Positions 12,806 to 55,753 are shown, counted from the first letter of the stretch. The stretch is DNA of 64,000 bases from Candidatus Caenarcanales bacterium (GCA_022447685.1 JAKVAO010000005.1:1624-65623); one strand, 5' to 3'. Numbers and translations: made by a program. The notes: generated by a model from the letters alone, not told the origin.

Positions 12806-13007
12806 TATAGATATCATCTTCTTCATTATTCCAAATTCTAGACAAGGATTGCTCACTTAAAATAGACTTTGAATCATCAAAAATAACTTCTTTGTCCTTA
12901 GTAATAAAAATTACAATGCCTTCTTGGTTTAGATTTGCATCGATAGGCTCAAGAGGCTCAAGTAAACCATCTTGTGTTAATCTAACCTTGAACTGTTTAA
13001 TTCTCAT
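12795..13007 (-). CDS. Putative antitoxin
   Basis: 70-aa ORF upstream of and overlapping the toxin; acidic end SEQSLSRIWNNEEDDIYNEL resembles small partners of PemK-like toxins. Confidence 0.7.
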   Translation of the reverse strand: MRIKQFKVRLTQDGLLEPLEPIDANLNQEGIVIFITKDKEVIFDDSKSILSEQSLSRIWNNEEDDIYNEL

Positions 13008-21450: not shown

Positions 21451-22615
21451 CTTCTTCTAGCCTCTGTGCAAGTAAACTTATAGGGTTTACAAATGATTTT
21501 AATGGTTGATTCAAGCTCTTTGAAAGTGGAGTGAAGTAATCATCCATGTAATTAACAGCGATCTGATCTATAAATCTTTCTCCACGTGCAAGTGAGATTA
21601 AGCCTGAACTCAAAGATCTAATAATAGCAGAGTGAGAATCTTCTTTATACCTTTTTTTAGAATAAGAATATACCTGGCTAAAGCCTGGATCTTTAAGTAA
21701 CATATAAGAGAAACTGGGTGATTCACTCATGCTCAGGTCTACTACAAAAATTGGTTTATTGGAGTCAATTGGTGGGATATTAGTTAATAAATCTAAGTCA
21801 TTTACCAGAATTATGAAATCCGTTTCTTCAAGATTAACTTCCTCGATATTTAAATAATTAAAGATGGACTTTATGTCTAGTTGCGTTTCATGGTCTAGCT
21901 TTCGTGAATTGGAGATGTAGAAACCCTTTAGAGACTTGAGTTTATACTCTTCCATTATTTTTTTTGAAAGGAAGATTAGAGGTGATGCCAAGCAGGCTTC
22001 GTTGAGTGAGCAGATGTTCTGGCTGTGATATTCACGTATGGTTTTATCTATGTAGTGTTCTTCAGCGATGTCTAAGCCATATTCACCTAGATTTGGCGTG
22101 AATTTTCGGTTTTTTGCGAAGATTATTCTATTGAAAAAATTATGTTGTTTGATCACTTGAACAAAGAATGATAGATTGATTTCTCGCCTGGCTTTGAATT
22201 CTGCTAGTCTGTCAGTATCGATTTTATCTTCGAGTTTATGCCAATCCTCTAGTGCTTTTTTGTCCTTGCCTTTTGAACTGGCGTACTTGTGGCTGTAATA
22301 TGACCAATAGAATAAGTCTTCATCTGCAGTAGATTTTATATCCACCAAGTTGATTCTTAAAATTCGATGTTGTTTATTGATTCCATTTTTTTCATCGATT
22401 TTTGCAAGTGATTTTATTAATTCATTGAACTTAAAATTTAAGTCACTTAGTTTGTACATGTGGTTAGAAAAATTTAATTTTGGATTTTTACTAAAGATTA
22501 ATTTTTCAAGATCGATAAAGACAGTGCTGGCTTCACGCAGTTTGTCAGTTAGATCCAAGCCTAATTGCTCTAAATAAGTCTCGAATTCTTTCTTTTGAAA
22601 ATTTGTATAGTACAT
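21443..22615 (-). CDS. Hypothetical protein
   Basis: 390-aa ORF overlapping the argS start; no motif recognised. Confidence 0.7.
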   Translation of the reverse strand: MYYTNFQKKEFETYLEQLGLDLTDKLREASTVFIDLEKLIFSKNPKLNFSNHMYKLSDLNFKFNELIKSLAKIDEKNGINKQHRILRINLVDIKSTADEDLFYWSYYSHKYASSKGKDKKALEDWHKLEDKIDTDRLAEFKARREINLSFFVQVIKQHNFFNRIIFAKNRKFTPNLGEYGLDIAEEHYIDKTIREYHSQNICSLNEACLASPLIFLSKKIMEEYKLKSLKGFYISNSRKLDHETQLDIKSIFNYLNIEEVNLEETDFIILVNDLDLLTNIPPIDSNKPIFVVDLSMSESPSFSYMLLKDPGFSQVYSYSKKRYKEDSHSAIIRSLSSGLISLARGERFIDQIAVNYMDDYFTPLSKSLNQPLKSFVNPISLLAQRLEEDA

Positions 22616-23393: not shown

Positions 23394-24758
23394 ATGTTAA
23401 AAACACTTGTTCTTGCAGCAGGAAGGGGGACTCGTCTTAAATCCAATACCACGAAAGTATTGCATAAGGTTTTCGATAAACCTATACTCTCTTGGGTTTT
23501 AGATGGTCTGGCTGATCTTGACCAAGAGGAAATTGTGGTGGTCTGCGGTCATCACTCAGAAGAAGTGAAAGATTTTCTTCATGCGTATCCAGTTACTACA
23601 GTGGATCAAGAGATTCAGATGGGTACCGGGCACGCGGTTATGTGTGCCGCTCACCTCTTCGAAGAGTTTGAAGGTACTGTCATGGTTGTTAATGGTGATT
23701 CACCGTTGATTCGCTCAGAGACTTTAAGTGAGATGTATAGCTATCACAAACAAGCAGAATCGAATATGACTTTGCTTACTAGCTTTTTGGATAAACCAGG
23801 TGGTTACGGCAGAATTGTTAGAAGAAATAACTCTATTATCGGTATTAAGGAACACAAAGATTGTTCAGAAGCGGAGAAGACTATTCGCGAGGTTAATGTT
23901 GGAGTTTATTGTTTTGAGTGGCAATTACTCAAAGAAGGTCTTAGTAAACTAAAAAGTAATAACGCTCAGGAAGAATTTTATTTGACTGACTTGGTTGAGT
24001 GGGCATATTGCCAAGGTTTAAATATCAATAACTATATACTAAACGATCCAAGAGAAGCTCTTGGAGTCAACAATAGAAAGGATCTTGCACTTGTTTATAA
24101 ACTCAAAAATAAACATTCACTTGAGCAGTTGATGGATAACGGTGTAACTATTATTGATCCAGATAGCACTTGGATTAGTCCTGATGCTGATATTGGTCCT
24201 GACACTGTGATTTATCCTGGCACTTTTATTCAAAGAAGAGTGAGTATTGGTTCGAACTGTGTGATTGGACCGAATGCTGTGATTCATGGTCCCGTAGAAA
24301 TTGGTTCTAATAGCTCAGTTGTACAATCTCATATCTCAAGATCCTCTATAGGAGATCATTGTAATATTGGACCTTACGCTCATATACGTGATGGCAGTGA
24401 TATTAGAACTGGTGTTAGAGTTGGTTGTTATGTCGAAGTGAAGAACTCTAATCTTGGCGATGGCACTGCTGCTGCTCATTTGAGTTATCTTGGTGATGCT
24501 GATATAAAATCCAACGTTAATGTTGGTGCTGGAACTATTACTGCGAATTTCAATTCATTTACTGGGGAGAAGTCTGAGACTGTTATATGTTCTGGTGCTA
24601 GTACTGGAGCGAATTCTGTACTTATAGCTCCGATAACGGTCAATGAGTCTGCTTCTGTCGCTGCAGGTTCAGTAGTTACTAAAGATGTTCCTGAAAATAT
24701 GTTGGGGATAGCCAGACCTAGGCAGGAGATTAAGCGTTTGCCTGGGGCTAAGGTTTAG
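23394..24758 (+). CDS. glmU: Bifunctional GlcNAc-1-P uridyltransferase/acetyltransferase
   Basis: LAAGRGTRLKS, GTGHAV, YLTDLV, GVNNR, hexapeptide tail, SYLGDA, GAGTITAN. Confidence 0.98.
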   Translation: MLKTLVLAAGRGTRLKSNTTKVLHKVFDKPILSWVLDGLADLDQEEIVVVCGHHSEEVKDFLHAYPVTTVDQEIQMGTGHAVMCAAHLFEEFEGTVMVVNGDSPLIRSETLSEMYSYHKQAESNMTLLTSFLDKPGGYGRIVRRNNSIIGIKEHKDCSEAEKTIREVNVGVYCFEWQLLKEGLSKLKSNNAQEEFYLTDLVEWAYCQGLNINNYILNDPREALGVNNRKDLALVYKLKNKHSLEQLMDNGVTIIDPDSTWISPDADIGPDTVIYPGTFIQRRVSIGSNCVIGPNAVIHGPVEIGSNSSVVQSHISRSSIGDHCNIGPYAHIRDGSDIRTGVRVGCYVEVKNSNLGDGTAAAHLSYLGDADIKSNVNVGAGTITANFNSFTGEKSETVICSGASTGANSVLIAPITVNESASVAAGSVVTKDVPENMLGIARPRQEIKRLPGAKV

Positions 24759-25186
24759 GCATATCCAAGGTCTTTGTTCGTATAATTTGCCCAAACAGAC
24801 ATCAACCATTTACCAGATTGTGAAATCATTCTATGGCTTGCTAGTTTCTTGAAATTCTCTTGTGCAAATTCTCTGAGGTTTTCAACAGCATCATTTGGTA
24901 AGGTGATACTTCTTAGAGCAGATCTAATTACAGATGCAGCTGATTTCTTTTTTTGTTGATAGGATTGCTTGAATCTTTCTTTGTATGAATCAACAACTGC
25001 TTGTTGAATAACAATATTGTTTTTTATAGAATTGAACTGGCTCATGAAAGAACCAAGAATTCCACCTTTTTCATTATCGTCAATGGTTTTATTGTCTTGG
25101 TCAAGTATGTTCTCGATTTTGGCTGCTTGTTTTGCAAGCTTGTTGCCACGATCAGGTCCTAAATTGATTAATCCTTCTACTGACAT
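24755..25186 (-). CDS. Hypothetical protein
   Basis: 143-aa ATG ORF with helical composition. Confidence 0.6.
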   Translation of the reverse strand: MSVEGLINLGPDRGNKLAKQAAKIENILDQDNKTIDDNEKGGILGSFMSQFNSIKNNIVIQQAVVDSYKERFKQSYQQKKKSAASVIRSALRSITLPNDAVENLREFAQENFKKLASHRMISQSGKWLMSVWANYTNKDLGYA

Positions 25187-25602: not shown

Positions 25603-26307
25603 TTAAGCGTCGGCCGTAATCGTGTCGTTTTGGTACTTGATTAAGTTGTCTACAACTTTGTTGTTCATTTCATCGCCAAAAGCTAAATGCCACCATGGTT
25701 TTGGATCAGATTTCCATAAATGTGGGCTTCTTTTAGGTTTGAAAGCTTCTCTAATAAATAAAGGCGGATGCTCTGCTCTTGGAGGAGGCTTTAGTTTCTG
25801 TTTCTTAGGTTTATCTGAGATCCAGTTACTGAAAGGATTTATCTTCTCGAATGCTTCATCTGCAAATTCGGTCAGTATTGACCAAGCATTGTCGAGGAAT
25901 CTAAAGAATTCTTCGAGTAAACTATCTTCTATATCTTCTAAGGCACTAACTTTCTTAGTTTTCTTGATGCCTGCTACTTGTCTTTTGCGTCTCTTTCTCT
26001 CTTCTTCGAAGTAATTAGAAGATACTTTCTGAGAGGCATTGCTATCAAATTTGGAAAATTCATCTAGATTACCAGTATCTGGATCGATATCATCTAATCC
26101 ATGCTTAGCATCGTATTCTTTCTCATCCTGAGCTAAATCTTCTATAGCGTTCTTAGACTCGAATGCTTCAGCAGCATCAGCCATTTCAAGTTCACTTAAC
26201 TGTCCAGGATTGTTATTAGGGGTATTCCTTACCTGTGACTGCGTATTGTTAAACGCAAAGTCATCCATTGCATAAGGATTACCTGCATTATAAACAGGAG
26301 TTGACAT
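25603..26307 (-). CDS. Hypothetical protein, acidic N-half and basic Pro/Trp-rich C-terminus
   Basis: 234-aa ATG ORF. Confidence 0.7.
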   Translation of the reverse strand: MSTPVYNAGNPYAMDDFAFNNTQSQVRNTPNNNPGQLSELEMADAAEAFESKNAIEDLAQDEKEYDAKHGLDDIDPDTGNLDEFSKFDSNASQKVSSNYFEEERKRRKRQVAGIKKTKKVSALEDIEDSLLEEFFRFLDNAWSILTEFADEAFEKINPFSNWISDKPKKQKLKPPPRAEHPPLFIREAFKPKRSPHLWKSDPKPWWHLAFGDEMNNKVVDNLIKYQNDTITADA

Positions 26308-26456
26308 TACTTGGTAGCCTCAAGGTTAACTTGTTCTTAACCTTGTAATTAATGTTATCAATGTCAATATATATTTGTCAAGTTTTTCTTAACAATTTCT
26401 TTGTATTTATCTTGCTTTTTATAAAATTTATTAGGAGTTCGAAATATTCCGTGAGC

Positions 26457-26876
26457 TTAGCTGCCTTTACTTGCTAAAAGCTTATCTAAACCAGATAAAT
26501 TCGTAAGTTGAGCGCTGGTAAATTCTTCGAAAGTTTTAAAAGGTCCAGTTATTTCAACTATTTCAAAACTATCTAGGGAAGGACCAACTATGCTGAAATT
26601 ATCTTCATCGTGCCCATACTCATCCTTATAATATTGAGCAGTGATTGAAGAACTAGCTTCTTCTGGCTTTAAATTTGGTGATTCTGTAGTTCTTTGAGAT
26701 TCCAGTTCATTTATTGTCGCTTCAAGAAGTTCGACATTGGTTACATCGCCTTCAGCAACAGCATTTTTTAAATCTGTTTTTAAACCAGCAAGCAATCCAT
26801 CGACTTGACTAGTAGTAGTACTAGATCCGCCTCCGCCATTTAGACCAACTTTATTGGTATTGTTGTATTCCACCAT
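26457..26876 (-). CDS. Hypothetical acidic protein with Gly/Ser/Thr-rich N-terminus
   Basis: 139-aa ATG ORF. Confidence 0.65.
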   Translation of the reverse strand: MVEYNNTNKVGLNGGGGSSTTTSQVDGLLAGLKTDLKNAVAEGDVTNVELLEATINELESQRTTESPNLKPEEASSSITAQYYKDEYGHDEDNFSIVGPSLDSFEIVEITGPFKTFEEFTSAQLTNLSGLDKLLASKGS

Positions 26877-27001: not shown

Positions 27002-27040
27002 ATTAAAGCCGTGTTCAGATATCTCTAACACGGCTTTAAT
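27002..27040 (-). terminator. Intrinsic terminator
   Basis: Perfect 14-bp arms ATTAAAGCCGTGTT / AACACGGCTTTAAT downstream of 27067-27390. Confidence 0.8.
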
Positions 27041-27066: not shown

Positions 27067-27390
27067 TTAACCACTAGCAACTATGGTTTTCTGAGGAGTG
27101 CTGTCGCCTTCATCACCAATATCAAAAAGTCCTTCTGGGTGAAGAATTGACATATATTCATTAAGGTTGCTTACAATAGTTTGTAATTTTTTATGAGCTT
27201 TTTCGGCTTCTTCTACTACTATTGGCATATCTTTAGACTCTTCTTTGATTTTTTCTAGCTCGCTCATGCCTTTTTTGGCTCTGGCTAGGTCTTCTTCACA
27301 CTCATGTTTGTAAAAACGAATACCTTTCTCTTTGCGTAATCTCTTTACAATTGCTTTAAATCTTCTTTTTTCTTGATCGGTAAATGCCAT
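27067..27390 (-). CDS. Small helical hypothetical protein
   Basis: 107-aa ORF preceded by GAGGG and followed by a terminator. Confidence 0.75.
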   Translation of the reverse strand: MAFTDQEKRRFKAIVKRLRKEKGIRFYKHECEEDLARAKKGMSELEKIKEESKDMPIVVEEAEKAHKKLQTIVSNLNEYMSILHPEGLFDIGDEGDSTPQKTIVASG

Positions 27391-27472: not shown

Positions 27473-28138
27473 TTATGCTTCTAATTTTCCACCATCTGAG
27501 GTTCTTATATCAATATTTCCTCTAGCTTTCCATTCAACCAACTTTAAAGCTAGTTTATTTCTCTCATCTTTACGCTTTTTGATGGACTTTTCAATGCCGT
27601 CAATTTGATCGTCAATTTTTTTAACGTCACTTTTTTTGAGATTGGGTGCGTCTAATTGAGCTGTTAGTTCATCTAAGAACTTTAAATCCTCTAGGTCCTG
27701 CCAGTTTAAGGTTCTGATTTGTCTTTGTATATCACGGTCTAATTTTTCTCTATTGTTTGGAACCTGCTCCATGTATTTGATGAAGTCTATTACTTGAATT
27801 TTTCCAAGTGCAACGAGTAGTAAAATTTCAGATTGTTTGTGGCTAAATCTAGGTATGACCTTTTTGCAATCTTTCAGGTAGTTTTCTAAATCAAACAGTA
27901 ATTGTTTTACTTTTATTTTATTGTAAGATTTTAGGTTAGCTTCAAATAACTCTAAATGTTTAGCCCAGCCATCTCTACTAAGAGTGTTCCAATACTCTTC
28001 CAGTTGTGGTGCTGGGACTTGATTTTGTTTACGGTTAAAGCTCAATAAGGCAGTTTTAATGGCAGCCTTTGCCATTAAAGTATTTTTTTGAGCTTCTAGT
28101 TGCTCGGGGCTTAATTCCTTTTTTTTATCTTCAACCAC
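27473..28138 (-). CDS. Hypothetical coiled-coil protein
   Basis: 221-aa ORF preceded by AAGGG. Confidence 0.7.
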   Translation of the reverse strand: MVEDKKKELSPEQLEAQKNTLMAKAAIKTALLSFNRKQNQVPAPQLEEYWNTLSRDGWAKHLELFEANLKSYNKIKVKQLLFDLENYLKDCKKVIPRFSHKQSEILLLVALGKIQVIDFIKYMEQVPNNREKLDRDIQRQIRTLNWQDLEDLKFLDELTAQLDAPNLKKSDVKKIDDQIDGIEKSIKKRKDERNKLALKLVEWKARGNIDIRTSDGGKLEA

Positions 28139-28162: not shown

Positions 28163-29179
28163 TTAGCTGATTTTTAAGTCCCATGGCAGCTCAATTTCAA
28201 GAATTTCTACTAAGAACTGATAAACCGCTTCGCCAACGCTTGCTCCTTTCTCTTTGGCTTTCATTGTTGGTGGCTTAACTTTTTCTTTTTTCTTGGTTTT
28301 TAATTTGTTAAGATACTTTTGTCTTAATGCAGCTATAGCATTAAACTTAAATGGGCTAAAGTTTGCTTCTGATAACAGTAAGTCATGTTCTGTCTTGTCT
28401 GTATTGTTTGTTATACCAATCAAACCTTTGGCAACTCTGAAGGCTTCTTCACCTTTGGCTTGTTGACTCAAAGAATTAATATAACCTTTCGTATACCTTG
28501 CTTGAGTAACTGATTTACCCAGACCTAAGCCTTGAATTGGTAGCTTTTTACCTTTGGCATAGAGTGCTTCTTGGGCTTTGTCTTGATTTTGCTTTTTCTT
28601 TTGTGCAAGTAAGTTTTTGACTTTACTAGTTCTACCTTGCTTAGTTTTAGGTGTATTTTGTTTATGAAAAGCCCGGTATTTTTCAACACTTTGTTCAGAC
28701 TGACCAAGATCTTTTGCTAGGCTTTGATTTGTTTCTGCACCTTCAGTTGGATTCTTAGCATCTTGTTGTTTTTGATTCTGAACTTTAGACTTGTTCTGTT
28801 TATTCTGTTGTTGTAAAGTTCGTCTAACTCTCGGTAATAAGCTTGCTAACTCTGGTTTTTCTGCTGCACCGGGATCTTGAGTGAGTCTAGCTTGTTCGCT
28901 ACTTTGCTTCTTGCGTTTAGAATTAACTTGTTTCCTAAGATCAAAGTTGATTTTTTGTTTACTATCTCTTAAAGAAACTTTCTGCTCTAATTGATTTTGG
29001 AATGAATCTTCTTGGCTCTGGGTACTTTGTTTTTGCTGAGTAGCTGTTTCTCCTTTAGCTTTAACTTGCTTTTGAGCACGGTCTGCATTACCCCTGTTGG
29101 GTAAGCGAAGATTACCTTTATTATTTTGCTGAAACTGGTTGTTAAATCCACCGCCAGCACCTAGCGAGCTACCCGACAT
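28163..29179 (-). CDS. Hypothetical Gln/Lys-rich low-complexity protein
   Basis: 338-aa ATG ORF 51 bp downstream of flgK2. Confidence 0.7.
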   Translation of the reverse strand: MSGSSLGAGGGFNNQFQQNNKGNLRLPNRGNADRAQKQVKAKGETATQQKQSTQSQEDSFQNQLEQKVSLRDSKQKINFDLRKQVNSKRKKQSSEQARLTQDPGAAEKPELASLLPRVRRTLQQQNKQNKSKVQNQKQQDAKNPTEGAETNQSLAKDLGQSEQSVEKYRAFHKQNTPKTKQGRTSKVKNLLAQKKKQNQDKAQEALYAKGKKLPIQGLGLGKSVTQARYTKGYINSLSQQAKGEEAFRVAKGLIGITNNTDKTEHDLLLSEANFSPFKFNAIAALRQKYLNKLKTKKKEKVKPPTMKAKEKGASVGEAVYQFLVEILEIELPWDLKIS

Positions 29180-29230: not shown

Positions 29231-31474
29231 TTAGAGAATTCTTAGTACTTCATCGAGAATTTGGTTCATTGTACTGAAGGCTCTTGCGTTAGCACTGAAG
29301 GCATTTTGGAAGACAAGTAAGTTTGCGGCCTCTTCTTCTAATGAAACACCACTGATACTTTTTCTTTGATTGTCTATAGCTTCTTCTAGAGTCTCTGAGG
29401 TTTCTCTGTTTTCGATGTCGATACTGGCAATTTGTCCGAGGCTACCAATGGTTTTAGCCATTTTGGTATTAAAGTTTTTAGAAACATCGGCTGAATTTTG
29501 GTAAACCTCAATACCGAAGTGTCCAAAGTTATCACCTAAGACATTGGTTCCAAAGGAAGCGTTGTTGGTAATAAACTCTACATATGCAGTTCCTGCTGGT
29601 GTAAGACCATTCCAGGTAACTGTGTCATTTGGGCTTCCACCGCCTACTAGGTTTTGTATTGGGAGTATAGGGTTATTGGCTGCATCTACGAAACGAATTT
29701 GGATGAATGAATCTGTACCTGTACCAATTCCGTTATTGTTTCCAGCATTGACCTGCGTACCGCCATCATCTACAAAACCAGAAACAATAATATCTAGATT
29801 TTCGTTCTCTCTTACGGCGAGTGTAGATCTGACTGTATTCATTGCTCCAGCGTCTGGTTTTATGAATAATTTCTCTGCTTGATTGGTATCACTTACAATT
29901 GCTGTGTTTTGGAAGAATAATTCTGAAAGCTCAGAGACTATACTATTGTCACCAGCACCAATACCAAGTGCAGTGTTTTCACCTAGTGCAATTAAGCTGT
30001 TGTCGTTTAAAATAGTGTTAGATATTGAGAAATCAGCAGCTGTATTACCTGTGAAGAAATCTATACCTGGAGTACCATCTAATTGATTACCAACTTTAAA
30101 TAGATTGTTGACAATATCTTTAATCTGCATAGCAAAATCTGATAATTCTTTACGCATTTCAGGGACTCTTTCGTTTGTCGCATCGATTAAACCAGATATT
30201 TTACCAGTTGTTGTGAGTATAGTTCCTTCTCTCACACCATTTTGAGTTAATATGAGACGAGCAGGATGTGCATCGGTCTTGCCATTACCTTGTTCAACTT
30301 CTATGTCGTAGGTTTTACCAGAACTGTCTAGAAGTGTGACATCGAGTGGGGGGGCACCAGTGGATGTCGCTGCTGTTGGGTAGGGACCTGCAGGGAGACC
30401 AAGTGTTACGGCAGCATTCGTCCCTGTTGCAACTTCAATTAAGCTAGTTGTATTAATTTGTGAGCCAGTGACTAATCTATTACTTAAGAAGATTTGATTG
30501 TCATCATCTAGTGATGCTACACTTCCTAGACCACCAGCGTTTTTGAAGCTTTGATTGATTCTTTCTACAACTTCTCTTGCAGATGAATTAGGTTCAAAGT
30601 TAGTAGTGAAAGTTAAAGGACCTGTGGTACCATCACCGTTGTTAACAGTTAGGTTAAGTACATTGGTACCATAACCAATACCAGCAATTGCTGTGTCAGG
30701 ATTTGTGAAAGCAATGTTACCGTTTAGCTGTGGTTCACCTGGAGTGCCAACAGCTGTGTCTTCATAGAGATTTGCTCTGACTTGATAAAATTCTCCATCC
30801 TGACCTAGTTTTATATCTAAGTCTATAGATCTGTTTAATTCATCCAATAGTGCGTCTCTTTGATCTTGAAGACTTGTTGCATCACGTCCTATAGCTCTTA
30901 GTAAGTTGATTTGTTTTTGTACATCTGCAACAGCTTCTAGTTGACTATTTAAATCATCTACTGCAGCATTCAAAATACCGTTTGGCATTGTGTCAATATC
31001 TTCTTTGATCTTGACCATGCTTTCATCTAAGGCTTGAAAGCTTTCTGTTAAAGCTCTTGCTGCATTCACGAAAGTGGTTCTTAATGTCTCTAATTCAGGG
31101 TTCGCTGCAAGGTCATTTGCTGCTGTGAAGAAATCTTGAAGTTTTTCATTGATTGTAATGTTGTTAGGATCACCTAATAAATCATTTATATTTGAGCTAA
31201 CGGTGCTTAGTTCGTCATAATAAGCAGCATCTGCAATGTGGTTTCGGTATTGCAAGTCTAAGAAAAAGTTTTTAGCTCTTGTTATTTCCTCAACGTAGAC
31301 ACCACTAGGTATATCTTTCTCTGCTATGTATAAAGTGTTAGCATCATTTTGGGTGACCATCTTACGCGAATAATTTTCGGTGTTGGTATTTGCTATGTTC
31401 TGGTTAGTGACATTAAGACCAGTTTGAGAGGCTTGCATCCCAGATAAACTTATTAATAAACCTTGAAAACTCAT
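29231..31474 (-). CDS. flgK: Flagellar hook-associated protein 1, paralog 2
   Basis: GMQASQTGLNVTNQNIANTNTENYSRK; LQDQRDALLDELN; C-terminal SISGVSLEEEAANLLVFQNAFSANAR. Confidence 0.9.
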   Translation of the reverse strand: MSFQGLLISLSGMQASQTGLNVTNQNIANTNTENYSRKMVTQNDANTLYIAEKDIPSGVYVEEITRAKNFFLDLQYRNHIADAAYYDELSTVSSNINDLLGDPNNITINEKLQDFFTAANDLAANPELETLRTTFVNAARALTESFQALDESMVKIKEDIDTMPNGILNAAVDDLNSQLEAVADVQKQINLLRAIGRDATSLQDQRDALLDELNRSIDLDIKLGQDGEFYQVRANLYEDTAVGTPGEPQLNGNIAFTNPDTAIAGIGYGTNVLNLTVNNGDGTTGPLTFTTNFEPNSSAREVVERINQSFKNAGGLGSVASLDDDNQIFLSNRLVTGSQINTTSLIEVATGTNAAVTLGLPAGPYPTAATSTGAPPLDVTLLDSSGKTYDIEVEQGNGKTDAHPARLILTQNGVREGTILTTTGKISGLIDATNERVPEMRKELSDFAMQIKDIVNNLFKVGNQLDGTPGIDFFTGNTAADFSISNTILNDNSLIALGENTALGIGAGDNSIVSELSELFFQNTAIVSDTNQAEKLFIKPDAGAMNTVRSTLAVRENENLDIIVSGFVDDGGTQVNAGNNNGIGTGTDSFIQIRFVDAANNPILPIQNLVGGGSPNDTVTWNGLTPAGTAYVEFITNNASFGTNVLGDNFGHFGIEVYQNSADVSKNFNTKMAKTIGSLGQIASIDIENRETSETLEEAIDNQRKSISGVSLEEEAANLLVFQNAFSANARAFSTMNQILDEVLRIL

Positions 31475-31489
31475 CTAAACTTAACTCCC

Positions 31490-32740
31490 CTATCTTAAAA
31501 AATTATTCAATGATGAATTGAAAAAACTTGCTGCTGTGTCTATAGAACTATTTAACCGCGATTGTGCTGTATTTAACTGTAAATTGGCTTCGACAAAATC
31601 AGCATCTTTGACTCTTGAAAGAGCTGTTTCTAACTGGTTTCCAAGTTTATCGTTGATTTCGTTGAGGTTCTGAATACGTTTAATGGTTAGTCCCATTCTT
31701 GCTCTGATGTCGAGTAAGAATGTGGTATTTTCATCGATTTGTTTGATTAAGCCTTGAACAGTTGTTTGATCACCAGCTTCTAGTGCTGTCTCTAAGGCTG
31801 CAATGATTCTTAAGGTACCAATGTCGTCGCCTCTTGCACTAGAGTTATTGAAGCCAATCTCAGATAATACCGTCTGGTTACTAGTATCTTGGATTGAGAT
31901 ACGTGCTTCAGCATTAGTAAGGCTAGTACCAATTAAACTAGTATCAAGCTTGATTTGATAGGTTGGATCTTCAGCTGCAATAGCACCGACACCACCAGCT
32001 GTGGTATATGCGGTATTTATATTTGCTATTATCGTTGCCATATTAGCTGCTGCTGGTATATTTGCAGTGAAATTAATTTCACCACCATTGCCATCATTAA
32101 CAACAAAGTCAAGGTTACCACCAGCTGCCGAAGCTGGGTTAAGATTAATGCCTTGTATTACTGCTGGTCTTCCTTGACCTATTAATGCATCTTTGATGTC
32201 GAAGGTATACTCTATATTCTCTGTACTTTTTTGTCTTTCATTATCTAAACCTTCTTTGTAAACAGCAAGATCAAAGCTGTCATTTGCATCAAGAAGCTGA
32301 AAAGGTGTTAGGTTACTTTGTTTACCAGAGAAAATATACTGCTCCCCAGATTTGGTGTTCGCTAGCTGTATCATCGCTTCACCTATACTTCTAAGTTCAG
32401 TGATATAACTTCTAAAAACACTTTCATCATTAGTTGCATTAGTTGCTGTGATTGCTATTTCTTTTAATCTGTCTACATTGTCCTTCATTCCAGCAAGGGC
32501 ATTTTCTGCAAGCTCAACTTGGGTTAAAGCATTATTCCTATTTGTAATAGTTTGATCGTTTTGAAGTATTTGTCCTTGGAAGTCAAGTGATAATGTATTT
32601 GCTCTTGGGTCTTCAAAGTTGTTTGCAAAAGCATTTCCTGAGTTGATTTTGTTAGAAGAGTTGATCAATAGCTCTTGGTTAAGCAAGATATTGCTGTGGA
32701 AGTGGTTGAATATTTGTTTAGTGCTGAGTCTATCTACCAT
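31490..32740 (-). CDS. flgL: Flagellar hook-associated protein 3, paralog 2
   Basis: RLSTKQIF..INSG..FEDP; LANTKSGEQYIFSGKQ; RARMGL..SRVKDADFVEANLQL. Confidence 0.85.
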   Translation of the reverse strand: MVDRLSTKQIFNHFHSNILLNQELLINSSNKINSGNAFANNFEDPRANTLSLDFQGQILQNDQTITNRNNALTQVELAENALAGMKDNVDRLKEIAITATNATNDESVFRSYITELRSIGEAMIQLANTKSGEQYIFSGKQSNLTPFQLLDANDSFDLAVYKEGLDNERQKSTENIEYTFDIKDALIGQGRPAVIQGINLNPASAAGGNLDFVVNDGNGGEINFTANIPAAANMATIIANINTAYTTAGGVGAIAAEDPTYQIKLDTSLIGTSLTNAEARISIQDTSNQTVLSEIGFNNSSARGDDIGTLRIIAALETALEAGDQTTVQGLIKQIDENTTFLLDIRARMGLTIKRIQNLNEINDKLGNQLETALSRVKDADFVEANLQLNTAQSRLNSSIDTAASFFNSSLNNFLR

Positions 32741-32743
32741 GTC

Positions 32744-34024
32744 TTAAAAATTCACAAAATTAAAAATACTTGCGTTTACTATTGTTGTTGCGTTCCTTAA
32801 AAGAGTGTCCATTACTAATTTAGATTGATTAGCTTCTACTATCGCTTCAGCTATAGGCATATCTTGCAAAGCTGATCTTTTGAGTTTGAGTGAAGTTACT
32901 TGGTCTTCATCTGCCGTTCTAGAGTCTTTGAAATCATTGAGTAAATTACCAGCAAGTGTTTGTTTACCAATTAATCTCTCAAGGTTAGCATCGACATCAA
33001 CCATTAAAGAACGTACTCTCTCCACATCATTAGCAAAGTAGGCTTGCTGTAGTTGTTCAAGTGTATTCTGGAGATTTTGACTAGTACCTTTTTGCTTTTG
33101 AGCGATAATATTGAGATCATCAAGTACGCTAGGTTGATTTACTGTAGTTCCATTACTAATAGTTATAGAAGCAGCTTCATTATCAGTTGAACCTGTGATT
33201 AGTGATGTGTTGAATTCTAGTATTCCTGATGCTGGTGGATTTTCTTGCACTATTGTGCCATTTAAACCTGCGGTGTTTGCGGCACCATTAATGATTGCAA
33301 TCACATTTGCTATTGGAGTTGTACCACCGGGGATATTTATATCTCCTGTGTCTATTGTATTGCCATTACCATCATTGACAACAAGTCTAATATCTCCGCC
33401 AAGTGTAATTGGTATTGTGATTGCTGCAGAGCTACTAACTACAGCAGGTCCAGGAGTGGAGTTGAAAATGGTTTCTAATCCTACACTAGATTGCATTCCA
33501 TAGATTTGTCTGGGCCCTGAATCTAGTTCACCTTCTAAAAATTGATTGTTGTTGAAAATATTATTTGGGTCAAATTTAATTGTTTGTTTATCAGATTGTT
33601 TGCCTGAAAAAATATATTGACCATTGAGCTGTGAGTTTGCAAGTCTGAAAATTGTTTCTGCTGTTGAGTCTAATACTTCACCAAAGGCTTCTCTATCTTT
33701 TGCGTTTACAGTTGTATTACTTGCAAATAGTGCGTCGGTTTTTACTTGGTCAACTAAATTCTTGATATCGCTAATAGTTCTTTCACTAATTTCAATCAGT
33801 GATTCAACGTTACCTTTGACGCCTGATTGTTCTTCAGCTTCATTTATTCTGTTGCCGAGTTCTGTGATTTGTTTTACAGCTTTAGGATCATCGCCTAATT
33901 CAAGAATCTTTTCACCAGAGTTTAACTGTAAGCTACTTCTAATATAGCTACTTTGGCTACTTAGTAAACTAGATCTGACCTCATTGAAGCCTTGAAGAAA
34001 GCCGATTCGACCAATTCCACTCAT
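32744..34024 (-). CDS. flgL: Flagellar hook-associated protein 3, paralog 1
   Basis: QLNSGEKI..DDP; LANSQLNGQYIFSGKQ; LQDMPIAEAIVE..SIFNFV. Confidence 0.85.
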   Translation of the reverse strand: MSGIGRIGFLQGFNEVRSSLLSSQSSYIRSSLQLNSGEKILELGDDPKAVKQITELGNRINEAEEQSGVKGNVESLIEISERTISDIKNLVDQVKTDALFASNTTVNAKDREAFGEVLDSTAETIFRLANSQLNGQYIFSGKQSDKQTIKFDPNNIFNNNQFLEGELDSGPRQIYGMQSSVGLETIFNSTPGPAVVSSSAAITIPITLGGDIRLVVNDGNGNTIDTGDINIPGGTTPIANVIAIINGAANTAGLNGTIVQENPPASGILEFNTSLITGSTDNEAASITISNGTTVNQPSVLDDLNIIAQKQKGTSQNLQNTLEQLQQAYFANDVERVRSLMVDVDANLERLIGKQTLAGNLLNDFKDSRTADEDQVTSLKLKRSALQDMPIAEAIVEANQSKLVMDTLLRNATTIVNASIFNFVNF

Positions 34025-34107
34025 ATATCTATTAAGTACAAACTTTATAGTTTTTTTGCTAGATTTTTGTGCTTATTTTCACTTTAAACATCAGCTGCTT
34101 ATACTAG

Positions 34108-36336
34108 TTAAAATGCACTAAGTATCTCAGTAATAGATTGATCCAGGGCGGAAAAAGCCCTTGCGTTGGCAGAAAAAGCTTTCTGGTATCTGATAAGATT
34201 TGCAGCTTCTTCTTCTAAATTGACTTCTTCAAATGCACTTCTCTGAGCATTAATGGCTTTTACTATTCCATTATAGGTTTCGGCATTGATTTCAGCTTGG
34301 AAATTTTCCTCATTTAGTCTTGAAACCATTTCACTATAGGCAACTTGAAAACTTCTACTGGTATCATTTCTTACTGAATTGGGAACTATCTCTATTTCGA
34401 AATGCCCAAAGTTATTGCTTAGATCATTATCTCCAAAGCTAGCACCATTCATTAATACTCCAATAAAAGCTGCTCCTGCTGGTGGAGTGCCTTCCCAGTT
34501 ACCTTCTTTGGCTGGTAATGGGGCTCCAGCTAGATTGGTAGGTAGTCCAATCGGGGTATAAGATTCATCATAAAACTGAACTTGGACTAGGCTATCTGCT
34601 CCAATGCCGTTATTACCCGCGTTATAAACTTGACCATCACCGTCATCATTTATTATTCCCTTTGCTCTAACTTGGTAAAGTGTTGCAGGATTGATTGGTA
34701 GGAAGGATCTATTCGGGTTTGGGTCACTGGCTTTCAGGTAGAGTTTATCGGTCTCTTTCTTGTGATTCATCAAAGCAGTATTGCCATTATAAAATTCAGC
34801 AATTTCTTCAATAATTGTATTGTCACTTACTGTAATCCCTCCAGCATTTTTCACTTCTCCAACAGCAAGTAAGCTGGGATCATTAGTAACTAGAGGGTTT
34901 ACTCGAAAATTCTCTGCTGAATTACCCTCAAAAAGTGGTGTGCCATTATTTCCTTTCTCGTCAGTAGCAACACTTAGTATGTTGTTGACAAGTGTTTTGA
35001 AATTTACGGCAAAGTTTGAAAGCTCTCTTCTTGCATTTGGTACGGCAACTTCAAGGGTAAATAATTGGGCACCAATATCTCCTCTGCTGATATCAATAGT
35101 TCCAAAGGAAGTGCCATTTGGATTTTTAAGAAATAGTTTAGTTGGGTGGACTCCATCCTGAATATCATCGTTACCAAAGTCAATATCAATAGGGTAAAAA
35201 AGCTGTTTTGCATTCAATAAAACTATACTCTCAGGGTTTTTGCCGTTTACTGTAGTCGGTGCAGCAGGTAAGCCTAATGCGGCGGCGGCAGGTGAAGGGG
35301 CTACTATGCTGATTGAACTAGTTGCATTAAGGATATTATCATCAACTAATCTTGTCTCAAGTACAATTTGTCCTGCATTATCCACGGAGGCTACGCTACC
35401 ATTACCACCAAAAGCTCTGAAGTGAAGGTTAATACTTTCCACAGCCTCTCTAGGAGTTGCATTATCTGGTAAATTTACTGTGAAGTTGGTTAAGGCGCCA
35501 TTACCGTTGTTTACACTTAAATTAAGTTCTCTGTTTCCCGGACCAATTGCAGGAGCTATTGGAATATCAAAGTCTGAAAATACTATTGAACCAGTTATCA
35601 CAGCTTCTTCATTTGGACTGAGGTAAGTTGGCATTCTGATTTCATAGATATCTCCGTTTTGATTAGTCCTGAAATCAAAATCTATCATCCCTTTTAGATC
35701 CCGGATAAGAGCATCTCTTTGATCTTCAAAGCTACTTACATCGATATTATTAACTTTTAGTATATTAATTTGTTTTTGCGCACTCGCTAACTTAACTAGT
35801 CTTGAATTAAGAATATCAATAGATTGTCTCAATTCACCTTTGATTGGTGAATTTACACCTTCACTAATTTTTCTTAAGCTAGTATCAACAATATTAATAC
35901 TATTAGCTAGTCCAGAGGCGGCATCAAGAAAGCTTCTTCTAAATGTAGAGTTGGTCGGCTCATTGGAGAGGTCATTTGCTGCATCATAGAAAGTTTGCAT
36001 TCTTTCATTGATTACCTGGTCTGTTGGTGTTCCGAGTATTTGGGTGATTTGAGAGGCAACATTCGCTACTCTATCAAAAAATTCAAGCTGGGTAATATTA
36101 TTTCCATATTGTACTTCTAGAAATTGATTTTTTGCTCTCTGTATATTCTCGACTCTTACACTAGTGCCGACTAGCTTGCCAGGTACTAATTCTTGGGCAA
36201 CTACGTTTTGTTGGTTTATTAATTTTCTTGTGTAATTCTCTGTATTAGCATTCGCTATATTATTACCCGTGATTCTCAAGCCTGATTGAGAAACCATCAT
36301 GCCATTTACAGTTAAATTTAAGCCTTGAATGCTCAT
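34108..36336 (-). CDS. flgK: Flagellar hook-associated protein 1, paralog 1
   Basis: GLRITGNNIANANTENYTRK; FEDQRDALIRDL; EVNLEEEAANLIRYQKAFSANAR. Confidence 0.9.
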   Translation of the reverse strand: MSIQGLNLTVNGMMVSQSGLRITGNNIANANTENYTRKLINQQNVVAQELVPGKLVGTSVRVENIQRAKNQFLEVQYGNNITQLEFFDRVANVASQITQILGTPTDQVINERMQTFYDAANDLSNEPTNSTFRRSFLDAASGLANSINIVDTSLRKISEGVNSPIKGELRQSIDILNSRLVKLASAQKQINILKVNNIDVSSFEDQRDALIRDLKGMIDFDFRTNQNGDIYEIRMPTYLSPNEEAVITGSIVFSDFDIPIAPAIGPGNRELNLSVNNGNGALTNFTVNLPDNATPREAVESINLHFRAFGGNGSVASVDNAGQIVLETRLVDDNILNATSSISIVAPSPAAAALGLPAAPTTVNGKNPESIVLLNAKQLFYPIDIDFGNDDIQDGVHPTKLFLKNPNGTSFGTIDISRGDIGAQLFTLEVAVPNARRELSNFAVNFKTLVNNILSVATDEKGNNGTPLFEGNSAENFRVNPLVTNDPSLLAVGEVKNAGGITVSDNTIIEEIAEFYNGNTALMNHKKETDKLYLKASDPNPNRSFLPINPATLYQVRAKGIINDDGDGQVYNAGNNGIGADSLVQVQFYDESYTPIGLPTNLAGAPLPAKEGNWEGTPPAGAAFIGVLMNGASFGDNDLSNNFGHFEIEIVPNSVRNDTSRSFQVAYSEMVSRLNEENFQAEINAETYNGIVKAINAQRSAFEEVNLEEEAANLIRYQKAFSANARAFSALDQSITEILSAF

Positions 36337-36478
36337 TTATTGCTACTAGAAGTCACTGGATTTAAGGGGGATTTTAGTGAGATTACGGGATATGAACTAT
36401 TTAGACCCCTAAATTTTGACTTTTACCTAGATTTCTGAACCTAATTTGTAATATCATAAGAGCTAAAAGGTTGATTTT

Positions 36479-37727: not shown

Positions 37728-40187
37728 ATGATTGCTTTAGCACCAGCTCTTACTGTTGATGATAATGGTAGTAAGAATAATAGGGTTACAAGCCACTTAC
37801 CAGATGCTAGTAGGACTTTACCTGCAAAAACAAAGTCTCAGTTCGTAAAACCTAAGCTTTTGTCTTTGTTTGAAAAAAGAACTGTGGATCCTAGGTTAAT
37901 AGGTGTATGGAATAAATCTTTAAGAATTGTTGATCTTGAAATTTTGAAGAAAATGAAAAAGAACGCTGTATTGAAAGAAGATTCTTTCAGAACTCTTTCG
38001 AAATTTTTACCTGATTTTAGAACCCTTAGGGCAAATATTGATGAATTGAAAAATGAAGATGAATATTTATGTCAGCAAGCTTACCCTCAGATCAAATTGT
38101 TATTTGAAGATTACCTGAGCAATATAAACTTAATAACTGAAAATATATATCGTGATTTGAGTTTTCATTTTGATAATGATCAAAAGAAAGAATTAACTGA
38201 ACGTATTCAGTCTTTAAGTGAAAGTTTAAGAGAACTTCATCAGGCTATCCCTATTGAAGATATTTCATTGAATTCGAAAAATGAAATTTTTTATCAAAAA
38301 CTAAATCAGATTAATTCCAATCATAGAGATTTGGTTAATTATATTGTCAAAAACTCTTATGAGCAGGACTATGAAAACAGGATAGAGCTGCTCCAAAGTC
38401 AAACTGTATTGAATTTAACTAAATTCAAAAATATAGATGAGCTTGAATTACAAAATTATCCACCATCTAACTTGAAGAATATTTTACTAAATATCAACTT
38501 AAAACTTTTAGTTGCTGAAGATGTTGCCCTCTCTGAGAAAAAAAGTAAACTGGAAAGGAAGTCTTTGCTTAAAGGTTTAGAAAATATTCAAGAGGCTCTA
38601 GAAAACTTTCCTGAAGATGAAGAATTAATATATAGTGGGGCTTTGCATTTAAAGCATTGTTTTAAAAATGAAATGGAAAATATACTTGGAGTTTCTCAGG
38701 TGAATAATGAGATGAAGTTAGAAGTATTATCCGATTTGATTAAATTACAGAGGTTTGACTTTAATTCAGATAATCCATTACAAGGTTTATTTAGTATTTT
38801 GAATAATATTGATGATGATCAAATAATAACTTTATTGGCTGATGATATTGTGCTTAAGGGATTTTTAGAGTCTGGAGAGGGAGGAGAGTTTATCCATCAA
38901 TTAAGTGAATTAAGGGAGACGGTAAATAACAGCTTCGAAAACTGGCTTTTCATCGGGGCAAGTCAAAGGAAAAAAAGTTTAACCAAGTCAAGAGAACAAT
39001 TTGAAAAAATGCAAGCTAGGTTAGATAATATTATCAAGCAATCGGGTAATTATGTAAGGTCTTTAAATTTCGAACGTTTGAGTGATTATTTGCCAAAAAA
39101 AATTGATGAGCTCCAATATTCTAATTTAGGATTATTTATTCAAAGCCTAGAGTCATTAAAAAATACTCTGGAGATTCAATTAGAAGACGGGAAAATAAGG
39201 AATTTTTTGAAAAATCGTCTACCTAAACTTATTGAAGCCAGTAACCAAAAGTTACCAGGTGCTTATATCCCTGATGACGTTAGTCCAGATAGGTGTAATA
39301 ATATTTCTGGCTTTGGTAAATATATTGAAGAACTTAAAAAGTTAAGCTTGGAAAAATTTCTTGTTAAAGAAACAAGTGATGAAATATTAAGGACAAAACA
39401 AGTATTAAAGCATAGAGATCAGAATCTTGAATTGCTTGTTTATAACCCTAAGCAAATTAATCAATGGTTTTCAAAATTAGTGTTTAATGCATCTTTAATT
39501 GACAATGAAAATCCAAATTCACTTGTTTGGGAAGGAGTAGGTTTTTTTAAATTGAAACAAGTCTTATCCTCTATGCAGGAATCTGTAAAACAGCTTTTTG
39601 AATATGCTAAGCCGGAATTTGAAGTAGAGAATTCTCGCGAGCATGAAATATCTAAGTTAAGTAAGTTAGATGAATTTATGAATGAGGCAAGTAAGGTATC
39701 TGGTTATTTTGAATTTGGACAATCTGTGGCTGAAAGAATTCTCTCACCAATGTTTAAAAGTAACATGTGGATTAAAAGCAATAAGGTTCAAAAACAATTA
39801 ATTAATAGTGGTTTTAGGACTGGTTTAAACTATCGCTCAGAGATGATAATTCCTGGTTTAATGGAAATTAAACATAAACCAGAGGACGTATTCTTAAATA
39901 GATATGAGCAAAATATAAAAGATAATGTTGAAGTTGCTTTTGGACCTATCCGTATTTATGGAGCTCCCATTATTCAAGGAGATAAAAAATCATTTTTGAT
40001 TTTGAATATTGGACATAATAAAAAAGCTGACCTACAAATAATTGATTTGGAACAAGCTTTGCGTAACTTACTCACTTACTATAGTAAATTTAAGAAAAAT
40101 GCAATCGAGAAAGCCGGTGGTGATCAGAAAAAAGCTGAAAAGATCATACAAGAATTTAGATCTCAAAACAAGCATCTTTTTCTATAG
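37728..40187 (+). CDS. Large helical hypothetical protein
   Basis: 819-aa ORF rich in L/E/K/N; no motif recognised. Confidence 0.8.
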   Translation: MIALAPALTVDDNGSKNNRVTSHLPDASRTLPAKTKSQFVKPKLLSLFEKRTVDPRLIGVWNKSLRIVDLEILKKMKKNAVLKEDSFRTLSKFLPDFRTLRANIDELKNEDEYLCQQAYPQIKLLFEDYLSNINLITENIYRDLSFHFDNDQKKELTERIQSLSESLRELHQAIPIEDISLNSKNEIFYQKLNQINSNHRDLVNYIVKNSYEQDYENRIELLQSQTVLNLTKFKNIDELELQNYPPSNLKNILLNINLKLLVAEDVALSEKKSKLERKSLLKGLENIQEALENFPEDEELIYSGALHLKHCFKNEMENILGVSQVNNEMKLEVLSDLIKLQRFDFNSDNPLQGLFSILNNIDDDQIITLLADDIVLKGFLESGEGGEFIHQLSELRETVNNSFENWLFIGASQRKKSLTKSREQFEKMQARLDNIIKQSGNYVRSLNFERLSDYLPKKIDELQYSNLGLFIQSLESLKNTLEIQLEDGKIRNFLKNRLPKLIEASNQKLPGAYIPDDVSPDRCNNISGFGKYIEELKKLSLEKFLVKETSDEILRTKQVLKHRDQNLELLVYNPKQINQWFSKLVFNASLIDNENPNSLVWEGVGFFKLKQVLSSMQESVKQLFEYAKPEFEVENSREHEISKLSKLDEFMNEASKVSGYFEFGQSVAERILSPMFKSNMWIKSNKVQKQLINSGFRTGLNYRSEMIIPGLMEIKHKPEDVFLNRYEQNIKDNVEVAFGPIRIYGAPIIQGDKKSFLILNIGHNKKADLQIIDLEQALRNLLTYYSKFKKNAIEKAGGDQKKAEKIIQEFRSQNKHLFL

Positions 40188-44411: not shown

Positions 44412-45234
44412 TTTCAAACTTACTGTCGAATACAACGGTAAAAATTTTTCTGGTTCTCAAGTGCAAAATCGAGACCAAGAAGCTCAAGGCTTAAGAACAG
44501 TTCAGGGAGACTTGGAGAAGGCTTTGTCTGTTTATTTTAGGGTAAGTGAAACTATTCTCACTAATTTCTCTGGGCGCACAGATTCTGGTGTTCATGCTAT
44601 TGGTCAAGTTGTTAACTTTAAAATATCCGAGTCTCAACTCACAAACACATCAGATGATTTTCTTCAGTTGATTGAAACTAACCCAGATAAATTTTTAATT
44701 GGTTTAAATGGAATACTTGATGATGATTTAGCTGCCGTGAAGGTAGAGAGAGTTGCAGAAGATTTCAATGCTAGATTTGATGCTAAATCTCGTGAGTATA
44801 TGTATAAGATCTTCACTAGACGCCATAAGCCTGTTCTGAGGCTTGATAGTTTAGCTTGGGTGAAAGAGCCATTGGATTTTGAAGCTATGGAATTACACGC
44901 TAAGAAGTTTCTTGGTAAGCAAGACTTTAGGGATTATTCGAAGCAAGAAGATTACCAAAATAATACTGAATGTGAAGTTTATGAGTCAGAGTTGATTAAA
45001 GAATCCAAGATATGTTTTAAATATAGAATTAAGGCTGACCGCTTTCTAAGGCACATGGTTAGAAGAATTGTAGGTGAGCTTATAGAAGTAGGAAAGCTTG
45101 CTGCTGTAGGTGAAGTTTATGACTCTGATAATTTTGCTATTCTTGATAAGGCTGGAGATCAGCTTCTAAAAATACAGACTCAAAAATCAGCTCCAGCAGA
45201 AGGGCTCAGTCTTATGAAAGTCGAATACTCATGA
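44404..45234 (+). CDS. truA: tRNA pseudouridine(38-40) synthase
   Basis: SGRTDSGVHAIGQ, FNARFDA, FLRHMVR, APAEGL. Confidence 0.97.
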   Translation: MFNFKLTVEYNGKNFSGSQVQNRDQEAQGLRTVQGDLEKALSVYFRVSETILTNFSGRTDSGVHAIGQVVNFKISESQLTNTSDDFLQLIETNPDKFLIGLNGILDDDLAAVKVERVAEDFNARFDAKSREYMYKIFTRRHKPVLRLDSLAWVKEPLDFEAMELHAKKFLGKQDFRDYSKQEDYQNNTECEVYESELIKESKICFKYRIKADRFLRHMVRRIVGELIEVGKLAAVGEVYDSDNFAILDKAGDQLLKIQTQKSAPAEGLSLMKVEYS

Positions 45235-54684: not shown

Positions 54685-54722
54685 TCAAGCAATCATAGCA
54701 AAGCGCGCTAGAATATGAAAGA

Positions 54723-55742: not shown

Positions 55743-55753
55743 ATCTGCCTGAT

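Follow-up and report, generated by a model that had tools for sequence, protein, structure and literature searches.

A 64,000-nucleotide stretch of DNA from a Candidatus Caenarcanales bacterium (GCA_022447685.1, JAKVAO010000005.1:1624-65623), referred to below as the window, carries a cluster of four genes that encode two paralogs each of the flagellar junction proteins FlgK and FlgL. With moderate confidence, we favor the interpretation that this locus specifies an elaborated hook-filament junction, predicted to comprise three obligatory proteins (K2, L1 and L2) and one optional, fast-evolving protein (K1), which together share a surface insert. The best reading assigns this junction to a flagellum of the Caenarcaniphilales, or to an axial structure derived from one. 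The source lineage belongs to this order of Vampirovibrionia, a non-photosynthetic relative of cyanobacteria, and the source records of L1 relatives carry the labels Candidatus Caenarcaniphilales, Melainabacteria or Cyanobacteria bacterium. An earlier note on this DNA had proposed an undescribed system. The locus is indeed real, conserved and, as far as our searches show, undescribed in its arrangement, but it is a variation on a known structure and not a new system, and it is built entirely from known families.

The four genes are transcribed from the minus strand in the order K1-L1-L2-K2, and all four open reading frames (ORFs) are intact:

K1, 36336..34108, minus strand: FlgK paralog of 742 amino acids, accessory copy
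L1, 34024..32744, minus strand: FlgL paralog of 426 amino acids
L2, 32740..31490, minus strand: FlgL paralog of 416 amino acids
K2, 31474..29231, minus strand: FlgK paralog of 747 amino acids, core copy

The spacers between these genes measure 83 bp (K1-L1), 3 bp (L1-L2) and 15 bp (L2-K2), and the shortest of them implies that L1 and L2 are co-translated. K1 and K2 align end to end with 40% identity, and L1 and L2 share 27% identity. The earlier note had described two FlgK and two FlgL genes in K-L-L-K order on one strand, all intact and diverged from their paralogs, with gaps of 3 bp between the flgL genes and 15 bp between the second flgL and the second flgK; the ORF coordinates, the recomputed gaps and the identities all agree with this description. 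It had also reported no flagellin, fliD or other flagellar gene in the 64 kb window, and the family searches concur: no further flagellar family was found by Pfam and NCBIfam scans of ORFs of at least 100 amino acids, or among precomputed Pfam matches for called genes. The remaining ORFs of the window are housekeeping genes and about a dozen orphans without any Pfam or NCBIfam match.

The arrangement is not a product of chance or of assembly, as evident by its recurrence on about 15 independent contigs or metagenome-assembled genomes (MAGs), including eight GTDB species MAGs, at protein identities of 54-72%. MAGs with the cluster include JABSOS01 (DT_14), DUDT01 (LMEP_6097), JAGWWP01 (REEB446), JBMOEX01, JBJTTW01, DAISHM01 and CALBDR01, and the assemblies GCA_964352085.1 and GCA_964438425.1 represent deep lineages. 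Proteins identical to the four also occur on metagenome scaffolds in ENA. The conserved order starts from a divergently oriented mnmA gene and reads K1 L1 L2 K2 o338 o221 o107 o139 (o234), in which the last five are orphan genes that are considered further below. Related and comparison loci are cited here by handles such as L004.

Both K proteins score above the cut-off (170.75 bits) of TIGR02492, the NCBIfam equivalog model for FlgK, with 203.5 bits for K1 and 236.2 bits for K2. The Pfam domains Flg_bb_rod, FlgK_D1 and Flg_bbr_C are present in both, with the Flg_bb_rod match of K2 (17.3) falling below the gathering score of 20.7. An AlphaFold2 (AF2) model of K2, with a predicted local distance difference test score (pLDDT) of 76 and a predicted template modeling score (pTM) of 0.71, has a D0/D1 helical core that is interrupted by two inserts rich in beta structure (residues ~217-424 and ~461-667). 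Its closest structural matches are the FlgK chains of two Salmonella junction complexes, 9u4r and 9go6, with E-values of 1e-21 to 1e-18 and target-normalised template modeling (TM) scores of 0.57-0.65. K1 probably resembles junction FlgK in the same way, as suggested by its 40% full-length identity to the modelled K2.

When 1.84 billion representative proteins were searched exhaustively with HMMER, full-length relatives of K2 (36-72% identity) came from members of the clade only. Beyond the clade, scores fall from at least 393 bits to at most 174 bits, the latter belonging to ordinary FlgK proteins of ~460 amino acids that match solely through their terminal helices. Therefore, the ~740-residue FlgK architecture is specific to the clade, whose FlgK has been enlarged to about 740 amino acids through the gain of the two beta-rich inserts. 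A word-indexed search for K2 homologs missed the window's own K1, and the exhaustive search was used in its place.

Part of the first K insert (insert A) is shared with the L proteins. Residues 149-291 of L2 align with residues 209-356 of K2 at 31% identity (E 1e-8), and cross-matches of the same kind are found among the K and L proteins of deep lineages. A domain of roughly 100 residues from the first K insert is present in both FlgLs, such that all four proteins carry the shared insert. The Flagellin_IN motif PF07196, whose gathering threshold is 22.7 bits, matches the K1 insert at 16.2 bits (E 0.012, 51 of 55 profile positions) and the L2 insert at 12.1 bits (E 0.23), both below that threshold, and does not match the K2 and L1 inserts. 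Structure searches place within the large clade-specific inserts a beta-sandwich weakly similar to GOLD and carbohydrate-binding modules. In the relative L100 (10001-12703), K1 reaches 900 amino acids through about 160 extra residues after residue ~498, which marks K1 as a hotspot for domain gain. Surface domains have likewise been added on a conserved axial core in Campylobacter and Helicobacter (FlgK 608 amino acids, FlgL 750 amino acids; PMC5691160, 9gsx). However, the junction proteins of those organisms are encoded by single-copy genes, and their inserts are unrelated in sequence to those described here, given that the exhaustive search found no full-length relatives outside the clade.

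As judged from sequence models and phylogeny, both L proteins are FlgL-type proteins and not flagellins. The FlgL equivalog model TIGR02550 is the best, end-to-end match for L1 (102.8 bits) and L2 (126.4 bits), with both scores below its cut-off of 127.2 (L2 by 0.8). Flagellin_N matches the two proteins at only 37-42 bits, L2 has in addition a weak Flagellin_C match, and flagellin models reach 39-59 bits at best, where the cut-off is 217. Solved FlgL structures (e.g. 5yti, 9go6_L) can be aligned from end to end with L1 and L2, and each of these two carries the FlgL-type N-terminal 'DDP' and the C-terminal signature S-[IL]-[FN]-N-[FY] (S-I-F-N-F in L1). Neither the 'DDAAG' motif nor the 'LSLLR' tail of flagellins is present in L1 or L2.

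A background set of 81 ordinary FlgK loci from a metagenome scan, many of them on short contigs, served as a baseline of modest power. When compared with this background (82 flagellin-superfamily proteins, 81 FlgK loci), L1 and L2 are one another's best non-orthologous matches, at about 100-129 bits versus at most 78 bits for any other protein, and the next 26-30 background matches are all FlgL-class proteins with no flagellin among them. In neighbour-joining analysis, L1, L2 and their deep orthologs join the canonical FlgLs, apart from flagellins, in 100% of 300 bootstraps. An AF2 model of L2 (pLDDT 68.5) has the fold common to flagellins and FlgL. With Foldseek, the best E-values of this model go to flagellins, and its target-normalised TM-scores are 0.52-0.55 for FlgL versus 0.43-0.49 for flagellins of similar length. 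The assignment to FlgL consequently relies on the sequence models and the tree, because the L2 fold matches both families. The L genes adjoin flgK in all loci. A grouping of one FlgL with the flagellins, which the earlier note had named as a result that would speak against its proposal, was found by neither the hidden Markov models, the signatures nor the tree.

The distribution of the four genes among relatives reveals that the two duplications differ in age. The deep lineages L099, L101 and L103 keep the mnmA anchor but carry one K gene: L099 has L1-L2-K followed by unrelated genes; L101 has a 353-residue unrelated orphan, then L-L-K, then grpE; and L103 has L1-L2-K-o338-o221-o107. Orthologs of L1 and L2 are present in every related locus, the deep lineages included, and the ancestral order is L-L-K. 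A neighbour-joining tree of the K proteins (453 columns, 300 bootstraps, rooted on canonical FlgKs) recovers K1 as monophyletic at 100% and K2 at 99%. K1 and K2 together form a clade at 100%, outside of which fall the single K proteins of L099, P0078 and P0076. This grouping is conservative, because long-branch attraction would draw the faster-evolving K1 away from K2. In the L tree, L1 joins the L099 copy at 93%, and the L099 and L101 copies together at 58%; L2 joins both deep copies at 84%, and a sister grouping of the two L101 copies is recovered in just 1% of replicates. Since the first and second L copies of the deep lineages thus pair with L1 and L2, respectively, the FlgL duplication is older than the whole clade. 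It is ancestral, and no examined lineage has given up either copy, even though orthologs of L1 and of L2 have diverged to about 33-36% identity. K1, in contrast, is a later local duplicate of K2 that arose within the window's sub-clade.

The two K copies also differ in how they have been kept. K1 evolves faster than K2, its axial core is poorly constrained, and at least two species have since lost it. In L012 (JBJTTW010000217.1), the gene is deleted and its last ~37 codons remain beside mnmA. In L015 (REEB446, JAGWWP010000039.1), K1 is broken by two internal deletions (about 227 and 329 bp), neither with a length divisible by three. L1, L2 and K2 are intact in both species, and K2 is intact wherever the gene is complete, being cut by the contig end in L100. 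Between the window and L004, the K2 core is 73-75% identical and the K2 inserts are 46-56% identical; the axial core of K2 is 73-91% conserved among orthologs. K2 thus behaves as a load-bearing axial protein. For K1, identity is 31-55% in the core versus 42-52% in the inserts, and its core is therefore no better kept than its inserts.

For the four junction genes and the five downstream orphans, the nonsynonymous substitution rate (dN) is far below the synonymous rate (dS) in every lineage pair, with ratios of about 0.05-0.25 that are to be read qualitatively, because dS has reached saturation, with values above 1.5 for most pairs. The four junction proteins are real and are maintained by selection. 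Relaxed selection on one FlgK/FlgL pair, another outcome that the earlier note had considered damaging, is evident in part: it concerns K1 alone, whose core shows no more conservation than its inserts, and not a K/L pair, and the dN/dS of K1 is still well below 1.

These findings depart in several respects from the canonical junction of FlgK (HAP1, hook-associated protein 1) and FlgL (HAP3), as represented by Salmonella (9go6, 9u4r) and Campylobacter (9gsx). The protein families, the D0/D1 cores and the adjacency of K and L in one operon are the same. However, the canonical system has one protein of each type, whereas here there are two FlgL types, ancient and co-retained, and in the sub-clade two FlgK types. 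The ancestral order is L-L-K instead of K-L, the FlgK proteins are enlarged to ~740 amino acids by two inserts, and an insert domain is common to K and L. The nearest canonical FlgK locus, L018, carries two FlgF/G-type rod genes and the series flgA-flgH-flgI-flgJ-flgN-flgK-flgL-fliW-csrA, while the cluster described here has no neighbouring flgN, flgM, fliW, csrA or other flagellar genes.

The K-L-L-K arrangement is absent from the literature searched and from the 81 ordinary FlgK loci, none of which has two FlgLs or a FlgK after FlgL. Adjacent L-type pairs that were inspected in this background consist of FlgL plus flagellin; one apparent double-FlgL locus, L067, was discarded because its second gene encodes a flagellin that had been misclassified by a regular expression. 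One of the 81 loci, L054 (1217-7022), has a tandem FlgK-FlgK-FlgL arrangement. This locus, from an unrelated low-GC metagenomic bacterium, encodes FlgK proteins of 552 and 616 amino acids followed by a FlgL of 693 amino acids, with the second FlgK adjoining the first in a late operon. It differs from the cluster in the window by having one FlgL, both K genes before L and no shared insert, and it provides a rare precedent for a duplicated junction FlgK.

In the mechanism that we propose, the K and L proteins would be exported by the flagellar type III apparatus and would stack on the hook tip via their D0/D1 coiled coils. K2 would form the hook-proximal layer. Beneath the filament, L1 and L2 would make up either a mixed layer or two adaptor layers in succession, giving three obligatory junction components where two are usual. 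K1 would be an optional addition, either entering the K layer or capping it, and would vary the exposed surface. The exterior of the entire junction would be decorated by the shared insert.

Several points weigh against this model. The hook and filament that the junction would join are assumed, and both the order of the layers and their stoichiometry are purely inferred. Neither in the 64 kb window nor within +/-10 kb of the cluster in relatives was a gene seen for a hook, rod, motor, export-gate, cap or flagellin protein. The reference Caenarcaniphilales genome, which is the order's only published inventory, lists only FlhA, FlhB, FliI, FliP and FliR (PMC4040986 supplement), and a 2026 preprint reports complete flagellar sets for only some 25% of Gastranaerophilales, the sister order, where partial sets are common. 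The ancestral L-L-K order runs opposite to the canonical flgK-flgL, the trees were built by neighbour joining on 297-453 columns, and the K1 losses in L012 and L015 are read from MAG assemblies that are unchecked against reads.

Some of these points favor the alternative that survives best, which we nevertheless regard as unlikely. According to this alternative, which the earlier note had also raised in the form of a repurposed appendage, the cluster is a repurposed remnant: in a cell that lacks a complete motile flagellum, FlgK and FlgL would build a short non-rotating structure for attachment or secretion, or a secreted assembly, with a retained type III gate exporting the paralogs and the lineage-specific inserts carrying a new function. 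The annotation of the reference genome, with export-gate genes only, is as expected for such a remnant, as is the absence of a second flagellar gene within the 64 kb and in the relatives' flanks. About 75% of Gastranaerophilales genomes retain only subsets of flagellar genes, for which a role in secretion has been postulated. Also consistent with repurposing are the position of the cluster among housekeeping genes, beside orphans with disordered Gly/Gln-rich N-termini, and the large clade-specific inserts with their beta-sandwich. The partial sets of Vampirovibrionia and endosymbionts, which have been postulated to be secretion devices, share with the present case the bacterial class and the retention of flagellar genes outside an obviously complete regulon. 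However, the published sets keep the export gate and rod (flhA/B, fliI, fliP/R, flgB/C/G), whereas the proteins kept here are those of the distal junction.

Other evidence stands against a remnant. The FlgK and FlgL proteins of known systems polymerise on the hook tip only, and K2, L1 and L2 show the conservation in their D0/D1 cores that is expected of stacking axial proteins. Flagellar genes are often scattered in genomes, and so their absence from the flanking DNA says little. Flagella are also inferred to be ancestral in the class, with later losses (Soo et al.).

A more specific conjecture in the same direction, which we consider quite improbable, is that there is no canonical flagellin or motor and that FlgK and FlgL build a non-rotating adhesive or prey-contact tip on the retained export apparatus. 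The shared insert and the beta-sandwich would then carry the function of this tip, and the products of the widely conserved o338/o221 pair would act as its dedicated substrate/chaperone or as a regulator.

The earlier note had suggested two further possibilities, both of which fare worse than the three-component junction with an optional K1. An obligatory four-layer junction, in which K1, L1, L2 and K2 each form one layer of 11 subunits and all are required, is very unlikely. In favor of this model, most sub-clade genomes have all four genes intact, in a single operon and subject to purifying selection. However, K1 is a recent duplicate that is absent from L099, L101 and L103, it is deleted in L012 and interrupted in L015 by two deletions whose lengths are not divisible by three while the other three genes remain intact, and conservation of its axial core does not exceed that of its inserts.

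Two alternative junctions, in which K1 with L1 and L2 with K2 would serve as pairs for different filaments or conditions in the manner of polar and lateral flagella, can be given hardly any weight. The gene order does present two adjacent K/L pairs, and a conserved motif precedes both K1 and L1. Furthermore, the published names flgK1/flgK2 and flgL1/flgL2 all come from organisms with two separate flagellar systems. Such dual systems (polar and lateral in Vibrio and Shewanella, fla1 and fla2 in Rhodobacter) likewise have two FlgK and two FlgL per genome, but each paralog lies in a separate complete gene set or cluster, often of different phylogenetic origin. Here, all four genes lie in one operon and derive from local duplication, with K1 and K2, and L1 and L2, being mutual closest relatives that were not imported with two systems. 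The pairing is also contradicted by the co-occurrence of L1 and L2 with a single K in deep lineages, by the loss of K1 where L1 stays, and by the 3 bp L1-L2 spacer with the co-translation that it implies.

Finally, although no canonical flagellin is seen near the cluster, one L1 ortholog carries the NCBI name 'flagellin', and L2 has both its best Foldseek E-values with flagellins and a weak Flagellin_C match, it is extremely unlikely that one FlgL paralog has turned into a filament subunit (a FlgL-derived flagellin) and that the locus encodes junction plus filament, because both L proteins score far higher with the FlgL model than with any flagellin model, carry both FlgL signatures, have no flagellin among their 30 next-best background matches and lie inside the FlgL clade with 100% bootstrap support, and because the TM-scores of the L2 model are higher for FlgL.

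Downstream of K2, the conserved block continues with five orphan genes and a hairpin, and upstream of K1 lies a conserved intergenic region:

Upstream intergenic region, 36337..36478, minus strand: conserved TTGGACTAAATAG-like motif at 36397-36407, with a GGA core
o338, 28163..29179, minus strand: conserved orphan with a Gly/Gln-rich N-terminus, a basic low-complexity middle and a conserved C-terminal region
o221, 27473..28138, minus strand: helical orphan, the most conserved protein of the cluster
o107, 27067..27390, minus strand: small conserved orphan, the final gene before the hairpin, present in all sub-clade loci and in L103
Terminator-like hairpin, 27002..27040, minus strand: after o107, -21.4 kcal/mol, z = -6.1 versus shuffles, with a U-rich tail
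o139, 26457..26876, minus strand: conserved orphan, dN/dS 0.11-0.19
o234, 25603..26307, minus strand: conserved orphan with an invariant C-terminal motif, a looser member of the cluster

The o338 gene follows K2 in all sub-clade loci (dN/dS 0.11-0.22), and a weakly similar gene is present in L103. The o221 protein is 82-83% identical to its L006 and L007 orthologs (dN/dS 0.03-0.05) and has 87 homolog clusters across Melainabacteria at identities down to 43%. In the distant Melainabacteria contigs L102 (8950-10663) and L104 (8987-10672), an o338-like/o221 pair is part of a different conserved four-gene block that adjoins a chaperonin gene, and neither FlgK nor FlgL lies within 10 kb. The genome GCA_964551135.1 likewise encodes an o221 homolog that has neither K nor L in the 10 kb around it. 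The link of o221 to the junction genes is therefore positional and holds in some lineages only. The o139 gene is found in those sub-clade loci that reach that far, including L017, is absent from L103, L099 and L101, and is probably a separate transcription unit, while o234 is present in most sub-clade loci and missing in L017. The products of o338, o221, o107 and o139 have no significant family match in Pfam or NCBIfam and no PDB match by profile search, and none is recognisable as FlgN, FlgM, FliS, FliD, FliW or CsrA. A further ORF, o143 (24755-25186), was dropped as a member of the cluster (14-32% identity, dN/dS 0.5-1.4).

The stable hairpin after o107 suggests a seven-gene transcription unit. 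Scans with promoter and terminator consensus sequences yielded neither element above shuffled expectation and missed this hairpin; the best sigma-70-like site of the region is at 26381..26352, just upstream of o234. The TTGGACTAAATAG-like motif is located some 55 nt before K1, and a further copy directly precedes the L1 start in L004, L012 and L017; it may act as a promoter, a leader element or a site for binding of a regulator. Its recurrence in the window is not above chance, and we therefore infer no regulon.

On the far side of mnmA, the slot between this gene and pyrB (window 37728-40187, plus strand) is hypervariable among close relatives. It holds an 819-residue orphan in the window, a pentapeptide-repeat protein in L007 (3759-6362), collagen-like proteins in L006 (4201-6328) and a DUF4143 protein in L004 (5259-6053). 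Between the window and L007, mnmA is 96% identical and the K and L genes only about 70%. The notion of a fast-evolving island was rejected, because flanking DNA identity (78-81%) is only slightly above that of the cluster (about 72%).

Elsewhere in the window, a PemK/MazF-type toxin ORF (135 amino acids, 12449-12856) overlaps by 11 nt an ORF of 118 amino acids without Pfam match, and the two (12103-12856, minus strand) are possibly a toxin-antitoxin pair with the toxin first. The region 53608-56911 brings together a family-2 glycosyltransferase, an NAD-dependent epimerase/dehydratase and a sulfotransferase, which suggests a locus for a sulfated surface polysaccharide or for glycan modification. 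Nine more ORFs of 199-633 amino acids have no Pfam or NCBIfam match (1736-3028, 3025-3843, 5391-5990, 8101-8868, 10971-11636, 21443-22615, 45229-46347, 50517-52049 and 61413-63314), and among these the 390-residue orphan at 21443-22615 is syntenic beside argS in relatives. An ORF of 239 amino acids (693-1412, plus strand) matches only the C-terminal domain of Fe/Mn superoxide dismutase, with no N-terminal domain match reported.

The hook-filament junction has been treated as an invariant two-protein adaptor of 11 FlgK and 11 FlgL subunits, and its first complete structures date only from 2025. The practical limit to further study of the clade described here is that its organisms are uncultured. 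If a non-rotating tip of FlgK and FlgL were indeed built by these cells, it would represent a class of repurposed flagellar organelle that is new, and it would belong to the lineage that is sister to the photosynthetic cyanobacteria. More generally, the locus bears on the question of which Vampirovibrionia lineages have genuine flagella and which have retained parts of them for other uses. The clade also constitutes a natural test of the number of adaptor layers that an axial structure can accommodate, and of the way in which duplication gives rise to new ones, as the four paralogous rod layers must once have arisen.

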